Assembly: GCA_035485155.1 (NCBI GenBank)
Contig: DATHOH010000029.1
Coordinates: forward strand, 23,760 to 87,759
Length of the DNA stretch: 64,000 nt
Direction: 5' to 3'
DNA from: Solirubrobacteraceae bacterium
GTDB lineage: Bacteria > Actinomycetota > Thermoleophilia > Solirubrobacterales > Solirubrobacteraceae
The position numbers were made by a program, and so were the translations under genes. Positions 5,610 to 29,977 of this stretch are shown one piece after another (positions within the stretch are counted from its first letter, which is position 1; each line of letters begins with the position of its first letter). The notes under the pieces were generated by a model that saw only the letters and a list, made by a program, of their open reading frames with translations, had not been told where the DNA came from and made no database searches.

Positions 5610-6775
5610 GACGCGACCGCCAACGTATCGACCGCGAAGCGCTCGGGCGCGCACGCCGGCAGGAGCGCGTCGAGCTCGTGCCCGCCCTCGATCACGCCGA
5701 GGACCAGCTCCGCTGTCAGCGGGGCCAGCAGAATGCCGTTGCGGTAATGCCCGGTCGCCCAGATCAGGCCGTCCACCGCGGCGGCCCCGATCGCCGGTGC
5801 GTTGTCAGGCGTGCCGGGGCGCAGCCCCACCGACAGCTCCTCGATCTCCAGCTCGCTGATGCCCGGCACCAGCTCGTGGGCATCGCGCAACAGCTCGTAC
5901 ACGCCGCCGGCCGTCGCCGACAGCTCGAAGCCACGCTCCTCGACGGTCGCGCCGAGCACATAGCGGCCGTCCGCGCGGGGTACCAGGTAGCCACCGCGAA
6001 AACGCACAACCGTGCGCAGCATGCCCGGTCCCGCCGGGTCACGCAGCCGCAGGATCTGACCCTTGACGGGACGCACCGGCACACGTGCCGCGGACGGCAC
6101 ACCGTCGATCTGCCCGCTCCACGGCCCGGCGGCGAGCACCACGTGCGCGGCGCGTACCTGCTCGCCGCCCTCGAGCACGACGCCGCCGACGCGCTTGCCG
6201 GAGACGTCAAGCTGGATGCTCGCCACCGGCGTATGCGCGCGTACGTCCACTCCGGCCGTCTCACACGCATGGCCGAGCGCGTCGAGGACCAAGCGCGGAT
6301 CGACAGAGTGATCATCGCCCGCGTCCAACGCCAGCCGCACCGTCGGCGCCAACGCCGGCTCGCGCTCGCGCGCCTGGCTGGGACGCAGCCGCGTCACAGC
6401 CAGCCCGAGCGAGCGGCGGAAGTCGAGCTGGCGCTCGAGCTCGCGTGCGTCATCCGCGTCGCGCGCGAGCAGCAGCGTGCCCGTGCGCATCAGACCCACG
6501 CTGCGGCCGCACGATGCCTCCAGCTCGGACGCGAATGCCGGCCACAGATGCGCGGAGCGCAACCCCAGCTCGAGCATGCGACGTCCCGCGTCCCCGAACT
6601 CGACCTCGACCACCGGCGCGAGCATGCCCGCAGCGACGCGCGAGGTTCCCCGCCCGAGGACGTCGCGCTCCAGCACGGTCACCGACATTCCCCGCTGGCG
6701 GGCACGCCACGCGATCGCCATTCCGATGATGCCACCGCCGACAATCGCCACATCGACTTGCCTGATGTCGGACAT
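5606..6775 (-). CDS. thiO: Glycine oxidase
   Basis: IVGGGIIG FAD motif, AAGMLAP, PVKGQILRL, GLRPGTPDN, GHYRNGILLAP; in operon with thiS/thiG. Confidence 0.94.
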
Positions 6776-6843
6776 GCCGATGATGCTAGCCCGCGCTTCC
6801 AGCGACGGTTCTGCGGCAGGTACTCGCATGCCAGACTGCCTCC

Positions 6844-7527
6844 ATGCAAACCGACGCTGACGCTGCACAGCCGCCGAGCTCCGACCGTCGCGAGCGCCTC
6901 TCCGCCGCGCGCCTGTACATGGTCTGTGGCGCCGACCCCGACGGCAGCGAGCTGCCGACGCTGTTGCGGGGCGCGAGCGCCGGAGGCGTCGAGATCGTGC
7001 AGCTGCGCGAGAAGCACCTTCCCGACGAGGAGCTCGCATCGGTCGCGATCGCCACGCGAATCCTGTGCGAGCAGCTGGGGACGCTGCTGATCGTCAACGA
7101 CCGACCGTGGGTCGCGCGCGAGGCCGAAGCCGACGGGGTGCACGTCGGCCAGGACGACATCCCCGTGTCCGAGCTGCGCGAGCTGGTCGGTCCCGACATG
7201 CTGATCGGGCTGTCCACCCATACGCCTGAGCAGATCGACGCGGTCGACGCGAGCGTCGTCGACTACATCGGCGTCGGTCCGATCCACCAGACGCCCACCA
7301 AGCCCGGCCGGCCGGCCGTCGGCGTCGAGCTGATTCGCTACGCCGCAGCCCACGCGCCGGTGCCGTTCTTCGCTATCGGCGGCCTCGACGCGAGCAATCT
7401 CGCACAGGCGCTCGACGCGGGCGCCACGCGCGTTTGCGTGCTGCGCGCGATCGCCGCCGCCGCGGACCCGCAGCGAGCTGCTCGGGCGCTGCGCGAGCAG
7501 CTGGACGCGCGCCTAGTCGGACCATGA
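6844..7527 (+). CDS. thiE: Thiamine-phosphate synthase
   Basis: VQLREK, IVNDR, GVHVGQDD, IGLSTH, GPIHQTPTK, FAIGG. Confidence 0.95.
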   Translation: MQTDADAAQPPSSDRRERLSAARLYMVCGADPDGSELPTLLRGASAGGVEIVQLREKHLPDEELASVAIATRILCEQLGTLLIVNDRPWVAREAEADGVHVGQDDIPVSELRELVGPDMLIGLSTHTPEQIDAVDASVVDYIGVGPIHQTPTKPGRPAVGVELIRYAAAHAPVPFFAIGGLDASNLAQALDAGATRVCVLRAIAAAADPQRAARALREQLDARLVGP

Positions 7528-7949
7528 GCAGCGCGCGCGACGAGCGGGCGCGCGCCGCGCTCGAGCCGCTCGGGCCGGACGAGCGCCCGCCGGCGCTCCT
7601 GATCGCGGTCGGCCTCGCCGGACTGCTGGCGGTCGCGGTGCTCGTCGGCGGCCTCACCATCCACGATCTCTCAAGCCGCGGCGGCTCGCTGCCGGGCGCG
7701 ATCTTCCTGTCGGCGATCCTCGCCGCGCTCGCCCTCGGCATGTACCGCCGGCGCTATCTCGCGGTGCTCGGCTTCGAGGCGCTGCTCGCCCTGCAGATCA
7801 TCCTCAGCTCGCTCGCGCTGATCATCGCCGCATCACTGCTCGCAGCCGGCGAGTACGTGGTCGCGCTCGGCCTCGGCGGCTGGCTGTTCTGGAAGCTCGT
7901 TCGGGTAATGGGCCGCATCCAGGCCGGCGAACACCAGGGGGGTCGATAG
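7524..7949 (+). CDS. Hypothetical membrane protein (about 4 TM segments)
   Basis: Hydrophobic segments; ATGA overlap with thiE stop. Confidence 0.7.
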   Translation: MSSARDERARAALEPLGPDERPPALLIAVGLAGLLAVAVLVGGLTIHDLSSRGGSLPGAIFLSAILAALALGMYRRRYLAVLGFEALLALQIILSSLALIIAASLLAAGEYVVALGLGGWLFWKLVRVMGRIQAGEHQGGR

Positions 7950-8074
7950 CACTTCGCGCTGCGGCGTCCTCGGTCGCTCGCGTGCCTCTAGCACGCCACG
8001 CTCCCTGCGTCCTTGCAGCACTCGACTCTCGACCCCCCTGGTCGACTGGTCACCTTCGATAGGCTCACCCCGCG

Positions 8075-9460
8075 ATGGCCGAGAGTTCCTACGACTGCAT
8101 CGTCATCGGATCGGGGCCGGGAGGGTATGTGGCCGCGATCCGCGCGACGCAGCTCGGCCTGAAGACCGCTGTGGTCGAGCGCGACAAGCTCGGCGGACGC
8201 TGCCTGAACTACGCGTGCATCCCCGCCAAGGCGGTGCTGCGCTCGGCGGACCTGCTGTCGGACATACGCGAGTCCGAGGAGTTCGGCCTGAAGGTGAGCG
8301 GCGTCGAGGTCGACTACGCAGCGGTGCAGGCGCGCCGCGAGAAGGTCGTCACGACCCTCACCTCAGGTGTGGGTGGTCTGTTCAAGAAAGACGGCATCGA
8401 CGTGATCGCAGGCATCGGGCGGCTGACGGCCGACGGCGACGTGCTGGTCGAGGTGCTCGACTCCGAGCCGGTGGAGATCGCCGCGGGCGGCGTGGTGCTC
8501 GCGACGGGCTCGACGCCGCGGCCGATCCCAGGAGTGGACTATGGCGGCCGCGTGATCGGCACCGAGGAGGCGTGGGCCCTGCCAGAGCTGCCGGCGCGCC
8601 TGGCGGTGGTCGGCGCGGGCGCGTCCGGCGCGGAGATCGCCTCGGCGTTCGCGCGGCTGGGCAGCGACGTACTGTTGCTGGAGGCGCTCGAGCGCCTGCT
8701 GCCGACCGAGGACGCCGACATCTCGCGCCTGGTCGAGCGTGGCCTCAAGCGCCAGGGAATCGGCGTGCACACGAGCACTCCCGTCGCCGATGTGACCGGG
8801 GGTGAGAGCGGCGTGAGCTTCTCCTACGGCGCGGAGTCCACCGAGGTCGACTATCTCGTGATCTGCGCCGGTCGCGCCGCCGATGTCGACGGGCTGGGTC
8901 TCGCGGAGGCCGGTGTCGAGCTCGACGCGCGCGGCCTCGTACAGGTGGACGGCGCGATGCGCACCACCCGCGCGGGCGTGTTCGCGATCGGTGACCTCGT
9001 GCACGGACCAGCGCTCGCGCACAAGGCCTCCGACGAGGGCATCATCGCCGTCGAAACGCTCGCCGGCCGCGACACGCACCCGATCGCCTATAACGACATT
9101 CCGCGCGCGACCTTCTGCACGCCCAACGTCGGCTCCTTCGGCCTCACCGAGGAGCAGGCGCGCGAGCAGGGCTACGACGTGGTCGTCGGCAAGGTGCCCT
9201 ACGGCGCGGTCGGCGGCGGCACCGTCTACGGCGACCGCACCGGCCTCGTCAAGGTGGTCGGCGAGAGCAAGTACGGCGAGCTGCTCGGCGGGCACATCGT
9301 CGGCGCCCGCGCCACCGAGCTGATCCAGGAGCTCGTCAACGTGCGCGCGCTCGAGGGCGGCTTCCCCGAGCTCGCGCGCATCATCCACGGTCACCCGACG
9401 CTGTCGGAGGCCGTGATGGAAGCAGGCCGCGCCGCAGACGGCTGGCTGATCCACGGCTGA
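8075..9460 (+). CDS. lpdA: Dihydrolipoyl dehydrogenase (E3)
   Basis: GSGPGGYVAA, GGRCLNYACIP redox disulfide, HPTLSE. Confidence 0.96.
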   Translation: MAESSYDCIVIGSGPGGYVAAIRATQLGLKTAVVERDKLGGRCLNYACIPAKAVLRSADLLSDIRESEEFGLKVSGVEVDYAAVQARREKVVTTLTSGVGGLFKKDGIDVIAGIGRLTADGDVLVEVLDSEPVEIAAGGVVLATGSTPRPIPGVDYGGRVIGTEEAWALPELPARLAVVGAGASGAEIASAFARLGSDVLLLEALERLLPTEDADISRLVERGLKRQGIGVHTSTPVADVTGGESGVSFSYGAESTEVDYLVICAGRAADVDGLGLAEAGVELDARGLVQVDGAMRTTRAGVFAIGDLVHGPALAHKASDEGIIAVETLAGRDTHPIAYNDIPRATFCTPNVGSFGLTEEQAREQGYDVVVGKVPYGAVGGGTVYGDRTGLVKVVGESKYGELLGGHIVGARATELIQELVNVRALEGGFPELARIIHGHPTLSEAVMEAGRAADGWLIHG

Positions 9461-9597
9461 GGCGGCCGGCCAGCGGCGTCAGACGCCACCCACCGTGCTC
9501 GACTGGGGTGGGTGGGCAATCATTCAAGCTCCGCAGGCGTGCGTCGTCTGCCATCCACTGGTCGGCCGCCTCTGGCTTGCCCACTAATCTCGGCAAA

Positions 9598-29284: not shown

Positions 29285-29320
29285 GTAGGGACAGGCACCG
29301 CCCCGGCCCCTGCTGATCCC

Positions 29321-29521
29321 TCAGCTCCCCTGTGGCCTGCGGCTGCACGCGCGCAGCCCGAGCACCGAGTGCGCTCGCGCGCTCGCGCACCAGCACCCCT
29401 CGGACTGGACGCGCACCAGCCAGTGGAGATCGTGGCGACAGTGCGACCGCCTGTACGGCCAGCGTCCGTGCAGCGCTCGAAGCATCCGTTGCTCGTGACA
29501 CGAGAACACACGCATCTCCAT
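29321..29521 (-). CDS. Candidate 66-aa Cys/His-rich small protein
   Basis: SD GGAGGG 5 nt before ATG 29521; most third codon positions G/C; no recognised family. Confidence 0.4.
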   Translation of the reverse strand: MEMRVFSCHEQRMLRALHGRWPYRRSHCRHDLHWLVRVQSEGCWCASARAHSVLGLRACSRRPQGS

Positions 29522-29643
29522 CAGAGCCCTCCGTCCTGCGGCTGGTCTCGCCTCGTGCTTGACCCAGATCCCATCGTCCCGATCCCTTCCATCGACTGGC
29601 GGGTGCCCCTGCTTCCCAGACATATAAATCAGGTTTTACGCAG

Positions 29644-29698
29644 GTTGTCAACTTGAGTCTCGAGATTGACAACTGGACGGATAACCGGACGTATAACC
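29644..29698. repeat. Inverted repeat GTTGTCAA-N14-TTGACAAC plus tandem GGACG(G/T)ATAACC x2
   Basis: Arms 29644-29651 and 29666-29673; direct repeats 29675-29686 and 29687-29698. Confidence 0.8.
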
Positions 29699-29841
29699 GC
29701 CGGCATTGCAGTCGTACGTTTCGTCGCTGACAGTGCGAGTAGGGCCTGGCTGTGTTTGCCAAGCCAGCCGCAAGGGGGCGCAGTAAGCGTCCGCCGAGCG
29801 ATCGGTGCGGCGGCTGCGCGGGCTGCTGGGAGAAGCGAGAG

Positions 29842-29937
29842 TGCGCCCGGAGGGAATCGAACCCTCGGCCTGCGGCTTGAAAGACCGCTGCTCTTTGGCT
29901 CCCCGAAGAGAACCGTTGACCACTGAGCTACGGGCGC
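29842..29937 (-). tRNA. tRNA with UUC (Glu) anticodon, atypical body and hairpin inserted in D-loop
   Basis: Acceptor GCGCCCG/CGGGCGC+A73, D stem GCTC/GAGC, anticodon arm GCGGT-CTTTCAA-GCCGC, variable AGGCC, T arm GAGGG-TTCGATT-CCCTC; CCA not encoded. Confidence 0.88.
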
Positions 29938-29971: not shown

Positions 29972-29977
29972 ATTCTA
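29972..29977 (-). promoter_or_regulatory. Probable -10 box (TAGAAT) of the tRNA gene
   Basis: Near-consensus hexamer about 35 nt upstream of the tRNA 5' end. Confidence 0.55.

Follow-up and report, generated by a model that had tools for sequence, protein, structure and literature searches.

The gene at positions 29842-29937 (minus strand) of the 64,000-nucleotide stretch of DNA analyzed here, called the window below, raises the question of why a tRNA with four intact canonical arms carries an additional hairpin in its D-loop, and whether such an RNA can work in translation. An earlier inspection of this DNA (the sequence-only reading) had offered a specialised tRNA, a tRNA mimic or protein-binding RNA, and a precursor with an excised element as possible answers. 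Our data favor a working five-armed tRNA-Glu(UUC) that belongs to a foreign lineage associated with mobile elements and has replaced the canonical gene, and we assign a probability of roughly 0.8 to this interpretation. The term specialised tRNA understates its position, since the gene appears to be the housekeeping tRNA-Glu(UUC) of this lineage.

The 96-nt sequence was matched by the Rfam model RF00005 with 66.2 bits (gathering score 29). All model positions (1-71) were aligned and 25 nt of the D-loop were scored as insertion. The coordinates and the anatomy that had been read from the letters proved to be exact. On the minus strand the gene begins with the 5' strand of the acceptor stem (GCGCCCG, nucleotides 1-7, 29931-29937), which pairs with 29843-29849, and continues via UA into the 5' strand of the D-stem (GCUC, nucleotides 10-13, 29925-29928), the partner of which is GAGC at 29890-29893. 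The D-loop comprises 31 nt compared with the usual 7-11 nt. It consists of AGUGGUCAAC (29915-29924), which includes G18, G19 and a CAAC flank, the hairpin GGUUCUC-UUCG-GGGAGCC (29897-29914) and an AAA flank (29894-29896) leading to the 3' strand of the D-stem, the last A being A21. The 7-bp stem with its UUCG cap, which had also been recognized before, is therefore located between G19 and A21. [quoted passage not shown] A CCA end is not encoded. It can be seen that the cloverleaf is intact, with an acceptor stem of 7 bp, a D-stem of 4 bp, anticodon and T-stems of 5 bp each and a variable loop of 5 nt.

When the full gene was submitted to ARAGORN, it was reported as "tRNA-???" and the hairpin was forced into the anticodon position, a class II-like fold that disrupts the covarying helix described below. 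After deletion of the 18-nt hairpin or of 24 nt the same program called tRNA-Glu(ttc). Because ARAGORN leaves the gene unassigned, genomes of an abundant soil order seem to be devoid of tRNA-Glu(UUC). The minimum free energy fold of the single sequence involved a slightly different D-loop pairing and was set aside for the helix supported by covariation. Upstream of the gene, the TAGAAT motif that had been proposed as -10 box is present at 29972-29977 (minus strand) and ends 34 nt upstream of the mature 5' end, but our promoter and terminator scan around the tRNA gene yielded nothing and no full sigma-70-type promoter was scored.

The 96-nt gene was found in 22 of the 24 other species of the genus with 88-100% identity, and a pattern scan covering one genome per prokaryotic species detected the five-armed gene in at least 120 species. 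All carriers are uncultured and known as metagenome-assembled genomes (MAGs), and among the matches listed every one is a Solirubrobacterales/Thermoleophilia MAG. Among these listed matches, 119 clean copies collapsed into 33 distinct sequences with 23 distinct inserts, nearly all of which measured exactly 18 nt (7 bp plus a 4-nt loop), and the anticodon loop CUUUCAA was kept in 115 of the 119 copies. The sequence is also present in many independent metagenomes of soil, peat and rhizosphere and thus, it does not represent an assembly artefact.

Covariation was quantified in an alignment (A3) of 29 distinct 96-nt orthologues. Here, we found that 98.5% of the cells of the insert helix pair and that five of its seven pairs show compensatory changes, a covariation exceeding that of every canonical arm. 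In the same orthologues all four canonical stems were paired in 100% of the cells, with one compensatory pair in the acceptor stem and three in the T-arm, and the D-stem was invariant. When the partners were slid by 1-3 columns as a control, pairing of the insert dropped to 36-52%, and unconstrained RNAalifold recovered the extra helix de novo. The five-armed feature is far beyond chance, and the hairpin is under structural selection and not in decay, as had been proposed from its stem and cap. In contrast, the emphasis previously placed on the stable UUCG tetraloop did not hold. The cap varies freely among the orthologues (UUCG, UACG, UAAC, UCAC, GCAA, UUUG and others), but G18, G19 and the CAAC flank (A3 columns 14-23) and the AAA flank (A3 columns 42-44) are invariant. 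Since the loops vary, what is selected is a helix of fixed length and fixed position with invariant CAAC and AAA linkers and not the UUCG cap.

A structured insertion might be removed from the transcript. According to this explanation, 18-24 nt would be excised from a 96-nt precursor by an unknown bacterial activity and the halves ligated to a tRNA of 72-78 nt. Removal of 24 nt does produce a textbook D-loop (AGUGGUA), inserts at the same site range from 16 to about 130 nt among the family members, as intron lengths do, and archaeal introns occur at D-loop positions. However, the insert forms a plain 7-bp hairpin with unpaired CAAC and AAA flanks, so that no bulge-helix-bulge motif can be drawn, and it is far below the size of group I or group II ribozymes; Rfam yielded no intron match in the window. 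An EndA-type splicing endonuclease (PF01974) was encoded in none of the 25 genomes searched, although the control search matched four archaea and only these. All words sampled from the 96-nt form occur in at least 11 metatranscriptomes, and in eight of these RNA runs assembled contigs contain the whole tRNA in its unspliced form, hairpin included, with neither joints nor deletions. One RNA contig of 92 nt starts exactly at the mature 5' end. These contigs extend into species-specific flanks and may thus derive from precursors or from contaminating DNA, and assembly loses rare variants such as a minor processed or small-RNA form. The strict 7-bp length and the invariant linkers in the 119 copies among the matches listed are also better suited to a structural part of the mature molecule. 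Taken together, these data render excision unlikely, and the idea of a precursor with an excised element is disfavored.

To which codon the five-armed tRNA may be assigned follows from the tRNA inventory. The genome carries 43 tRNAs (assembly 94.5% complete) and none of the others has a UUC anticodon, which answers in the negative the earlier question of whether a separate normal tRNA-Glu(UUC) exists. Across all 24 genomes of the genus that were searched, the only UUC tRNA found was the five-armed gene, and in the closed single-contig genomes G005 and G023 it was the sole match of the UUC pattern. For this search we employed a generic anticodon-loop plus T-loop pattern, which replaced BLAST with tRNA-Glu(CUC) because the latter had missed the real canonical UUC gene of genome G039. 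A tRNA-like match of the pattern in another genome (G008:C4:92037) was rejected since it is not a tRNA. Three over-long ARAGORN calls in the inventory (C22 "Glu", 97 nt; C39 "???", 94 nt; C38 "Cys", 77 nt) lie in GC-rich coding DNA and are not among the Rfam matches. They appear to be false positives and hence do not constitute a family of long tRNAs. GAA accounts for 18% of the Glu codons (11.4 per 1000 codons), which corresponds to about 7,500 GAA codons in long open reading frames.

To place these results in the context of the order, we compared 401 genomes of 93 genera. The five-armed architecture occurs in four genera of two families and is absent from the remaining 89. The carriers are genus g1 of family f1 (21 of 22 sampled genomes) and genera g68, g76 and g88 of family f4. 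An ordinary tRNA-Glu(UUC) is present instead in some 30 further genera of f1, in the remainder of f4 and in the families f2, f3, f5 and f6, and the two types are mutually exclusive across the 93 genera. Each genome encodes one glutamyl-tRNA synthetase (GluRS), which in the genome analyzed here lies at G000:C43:17831-19177, and we found neither a second, dedicated GluRS nor an extra GluRS-type class I synthetase paralogue. The GluRS tree tracks taxonomy, with g1 inside f1, with g68, g76 and g88 inside f4 and with the non-carrier genus g13 among the latter. No convergent residues or indels of GluRS divide carriers from non-carriers, apart from a single weak M-to-L column. Co-transfer or convergent adaptation of GluRS was therefore rejected. 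The patchy distribution of the carriers and the agreement of GluRS with the species tree suggest at least two events in which the tRNA was gained or the canonical gene disappeared, with no import of a synthetase. Since there is a single class Ic synthetase gene, GlnRS is lacking, and we infer a non-discriminating GluRS to which dissimilar tRNA bodies are already acceptable.

The scaffold of the five-armed tRNA is not restricted to the UUC anticodon. The same scaffold with the same insertion site was found with UUU, UGU, ACC, CCU and UGC anticodons and with inserts of 16-46 nt. The UUU (Lys) version has a 46-nt insert and an encoded CCA, and is located in three copies of a 2.8-kb repeat in genome G011 (L244:4699-7495, L246:4495-7291 and a third copy on contig C3; 99.96% identity). 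In this repeat the tRNA is followed by a 420-amino acid open reading frame for which no Pfam match was obtained, and the repeat looks like a mobile element with its own five-armed tRNA. The UGU version, with a 35-nt insert, lies on a lower-GC contig of genome G001, and the ACC version was found at locus L079. Viral contigs of IMG/VR contain the CCU version (L277, L279), the UGC version (L281) and a UUC version with a 9-bp stem (L278); two further hits of the viral scan (L282, L283) were rejected as chance matches. A phage-like contig (L280, IMGVR_UViG_3300050821_006825, 5843-9491) carries an array of 15 tRNAs, otherwise canonical, together with a tmRNA, and a hairpin-type UUC tRNA is located in this array at about 7450-7560. 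In genus g3 of family f3, loci L025 (1351-1553) and L024 contain a tRNA(UUC) with a conserved domain of about 130 nt at the same D-loop site and with intact acceptor, D-stem, anticodon and T arms. ARAGORN reported nothing for these two loci and Rfam produced only a weak partial match (32.9-42.6 bits) that missed the real 5' end. The UUC-loop pattern detected no canonical tRNA-Glu(UUC) in genomes G026 and G031.

The five-armed gene itself is linked to mobile DNA. Additional copies of its last 42-58 nt were detected within 7-30 kb of the intact gene in genome G009 (C8:116854-116895, C8:128435-128476, C3:45902-45943) and in genome G011 (C12:89448-89494). These copies of the 3' half are typical att-site duplications and indicate that the five-armed tRNA gene is an integration target for islands. 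Within the 64-kb window there was no att-type duplicate of the tRNA 3' end.

Such observations could be read in another way, namely that the gene encodes a tRNA-like RNA acting outside translation (as regulatory RNA, as protein-binding RNA or as integration target only) and that GAA is decoded otherwise. The use of the gene as attachment site of islands and the scaffold relatives in mobile elements are compatible with this idea, as is a tRNA body that is non-cognate for glutamate. However, the thousands of GAA codons would then have to be read in 24 genomes that contain no other UUC tRNA, and the C34 tRNA-Glu(CUC) is not expected to read GAA under the established wobble rules. The mutual exclusion with the canonical tRNA-Glu(UUC) and the preservation of the anticodon loop also speak against it. 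We therefore consider a role outside translation quite improbable, and the earlier suggestion of a tRNA mimic or protein-binding RNA is disfavored because the gene is the sole GAA decoder in the genus.

The body of the five-armed tRNA, a feature that had escaped the sequence-only reading, does not resemble that of a glutamate tRNA. Glu identity rules, which we take to be those known for the GluRS of E. coli and T. thermophilus, involve U34, U35 and C36 together with A37, and these nucleotides are present in the loop CUUUCAA. In contrast, all identity elements outside the anticodon loop (U2-A71, U11-A24, U13-G22..A46 and the missing nucleotide 47) are absent, and the tRNA has C2-G71, C11-G24, C13-G22 and its 5-nt variable loop instead. 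For comparison, the tRNA-Glu(CUC) of this genome and the tRNA-Glu(UUC) of the sister families have the classic D-arm (GUCGUC/GUGGUG...AGGAC/AGCAC) and a 4-nt variable loop. When the insert was removed in silico, the remaining body was no nearer to Glu tRNAs than to Arg, Gly and Lys tRNAs of the same genome. With these elements lacking from the body, charging by GluRS is not guaranteed. The paralogues of the scaffold with an Ala anticodon have a G3-C70 pair and thus, not every member of this scaffold can obey the standard identity rules.

These properties raise the possibility that the tRNA is used in translation but charged with an amino acid other than glutamate, with the scaffold setting identity and with GAA being ambiguous or reassigned. 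The absence of the identity elements and the combination of the same acceptor stem and D-arm with at least six different anticodons would fit such mischarging. However, inspection of RpoC argues against it. The 194 GAA codons of the genus align in congeners with GAG (48.5%) or GAA (36.6%), together 85%, and when residues of the sister families were used as reference, GAA stood at Glu in 60% and GAG in 68% of the cases. This interchange indicates that GAA stands for Glu, and signs of a reassignment were not seen. The lack of any extra GluRS-type paralogue points in the same direction, and we regard charging with another amino acid as very unlikely. Least probable of all is a pseudogene or insertion scar, in which a small insertion disabled the tRNA gene: ARAGORN assigns no identity, but this explanation is already refuted by the conservation of the gene across at least 120 species, by the compensatory changes that affect the insert as well as all arms and by its status as sole GAA decoder, and its presence in RNA-derived contigs also speaks against it.

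The following scenario would be consistent with these data. The gene probably encodes an elongator tRNA that works in translation and decodes GAA, and probably GAG as well, as glutamate, and it is the sole tRNA of this kind in the genus. Its fixed scaffold (A73, a 5-nt variable loop, the acceptor stem GCGCCCG and the D-stem GCUC/GAGC) marks a tRNA lineage of its own, the members of which carry a structured D-loop insertion located between G19 and A21. In the chromosomal Glu version this insertion is a rigid, tetraloop-capped 7-bp helix that is held by the invariant CAAC and AAA linkers, and G18 and G19 would remain free for elbow contacts with the T-loop. Nucleotides of the beta region of the D-loop face the solvent in known tRNA structures. 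The helix presumably stays in the mature RNA as a fifth arm, pointing away from the outer corner of the L-shape. Horizontal spread on phages or integrative elements, which carry the scaffold with other anticodons, is the most likely route, and the canonical tRNA-Glu(UUC) would have been displaced at least twice, in g1 of f1 and in g68, g76 and g88 of f4. The single GluRS of the host presumably charges the tRNA, recognizing chiefly its UUC anticodon. An additional helix at the elbow has to be accommodated by EF-Tu, by RNase P and in all three ribosomal sites; it is not known to be tolerated there.

We know of no natural cytoplasmic tRNA that carries an additional helix apart from the variable arm. 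The canonical bacterial tRNA-Glu(UUC) shares with the five-armed molecule the anticodon loop, the 7/4/5/5-bp cloverleaf, G18 and G19, the T-loop UUCGAUU, a CCA end added post-transcriptionally, the presumed decoding role and the slot in the tRNA set; it differs by lacking the fifth helix and by having the identity elements of the Glu body. Class II tRNAs (Leu, Ser, bacterial Tyr) and tRNA-Sec also have an extra paired arm that is conserved in its presence but free in its stem sequence. However, their arm exceeds 10 nt and occupies positions 44-48 between the anticodon and T arms on the opposite face of the L, whereas the five-armed tRNA has its arm in the beta region of the D-loop (20a/20b). 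Some of the non-canonical introns of archaea, nucleomorphs and red algae likewise interrupt the D-loop of an otherwise perfect tRNA gene with variable length, but archaeal-type introns form a bulge-helix-bulge and are excised by EndA. The host of the five-armed tRNA is a bacterium that has neither, and its hairpin is retained in RNA contigs. Bacterial group I introns of tRNA genes are ribozymes of at least about 200 nt in the anticodon loop, in contrast to 18-24 nt in the D-loop. Thus, the earlier statement that the architecture represents neither a known extra arm nor a known intron is borne out by the short variable loop, the missing bulge-helix-bulge and the D-loop site.

Among irregular bacterial tRNAs, tRNA-ProX has been known from Streptomyces. 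The allo-tRNAs (8/4 and 9/3) of soil bacteria have an irregular architecture (PMC5389517) and a type I tRNA-Leu is known in Streptomyces (PMC6614811). Like the five-armed tRNA, these three groups occur in soil bacteria and mobile elements, and their body and anticodon depart from the textbook identity set. They differ from it by altered acceptor or T-stem lengths, anticodon loops or variable arm, and they are accessory and often suppressor-like, whereas the five-armed tRNA has an added D-loop helix and is apparently an essential housekeeping decoder of a frequent sense codon. Aptamer-tagged tRNAs also carry a small hairpin on a tRNA that must still work in translation, but they are man-made. 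In these constructs the hairpin sits on the tip of the variable arm. According to the same study, tRNAs fused to a hairpin mostly lose their activity in translation, and neither a D-loop placement nor a natural example was reported (PMC7590224). Neither full-text searches nor a review of non-canonical tRNAs (PMC7609411), PMC5389517 and PMC7590224 yielded a bacterial tRNA for which a structured insertion in the D-loop had been described.

Three further tRNAs of unusual structure were noted. Outside the window, the genome encodes a class I tRNA of 73 nt with the Leu anticodon UAA (G000:C12:28204-28276, minus strand; 70 bits with RF00005) in lower-GC surroundings, and a normal class II tRNA-Leu(UAA) is present on contig C51. 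With its short variable loop the former resembles the type I tRNA-Leu of Streptomyces coelicolor (PMC6614811). A 91-nt class II-like tRNA with the Ile anticodon GAU and a long variable arm (G000:C22:5375-5465, plus strand, also outside the window) scored 37 bits with RF00005. The upper end of its acceptor stem contains two mismatches, and the gene may be irregular or decaying. In genome G009, the orthologue of tRNA-Glu(CUC) at L057:1501-1575 was called by ARAGORN with a 4-nt anticodon ("tctc") and an 8-nt anticodon loop, unlike its congeners.

As to the role of the fifth arm, all anticodon variants of the scaffold have the insert and its stem and loop sequences are free, so that a Glu-specific identity determinant is unlikely. 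A role based on shape fits better, and the arm could act as nuclease shield, as elbow brace or as handle for a hypothetical protein. More specifically, we tentatively suggest that it makes the tRNA refractory to a tRNA-targeting nuclease or toxin of a defence system, a toxin-antitoxin system or a bacteriocin. Such a protective or selective device is possible rather than probable, and it would account for the link to phages and for the repeated sweeps. If this was true, a whole family of such "armoured" tRNAs, with several different anticodons, would travel on phages and mobile elements, and a resistant tRNA-Glu(UUC) would have swept through host lineages, supplanting the sensitive canonical gene on two or more occasions. 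The ribosome, EF-Tu, RNase P and GluRS would then all accommodate a fifth helix at 20a/20b, which would constitute a natural docking site for the engineering of tRNAs.

Independently of what the arm does, a five-armed tRNA-Glu(UUC) that works in translation would be an exception to the four-armed cloverleaf, and one that is apparently essential for reading a codon with a frequency of about 11 per 1000. The function of tRNA-Glu would be split from the identity elements of the D-arm, and this natural substrate would make the recognition rules of GluRS directly testable. A core housekeeping tRNA would have been replaced twice by a foreign scaffold linked to phages and mobile elements, and the molecule would offer a natural design for D-loop tagging of tRNAs.

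Downstream of the tRNA gene, the window contains 557 nt (29285-29841) with no recognisable gene. In this stretch we observed a dyad, GTTGTCAA-N14-TTGACAAC (about 29644-29673), and a tandem pair, GACAACTGGACG/GATAACCGGACG, at 29668-29691. The stretch could be an operator-like site or the remnant of an integrated element.
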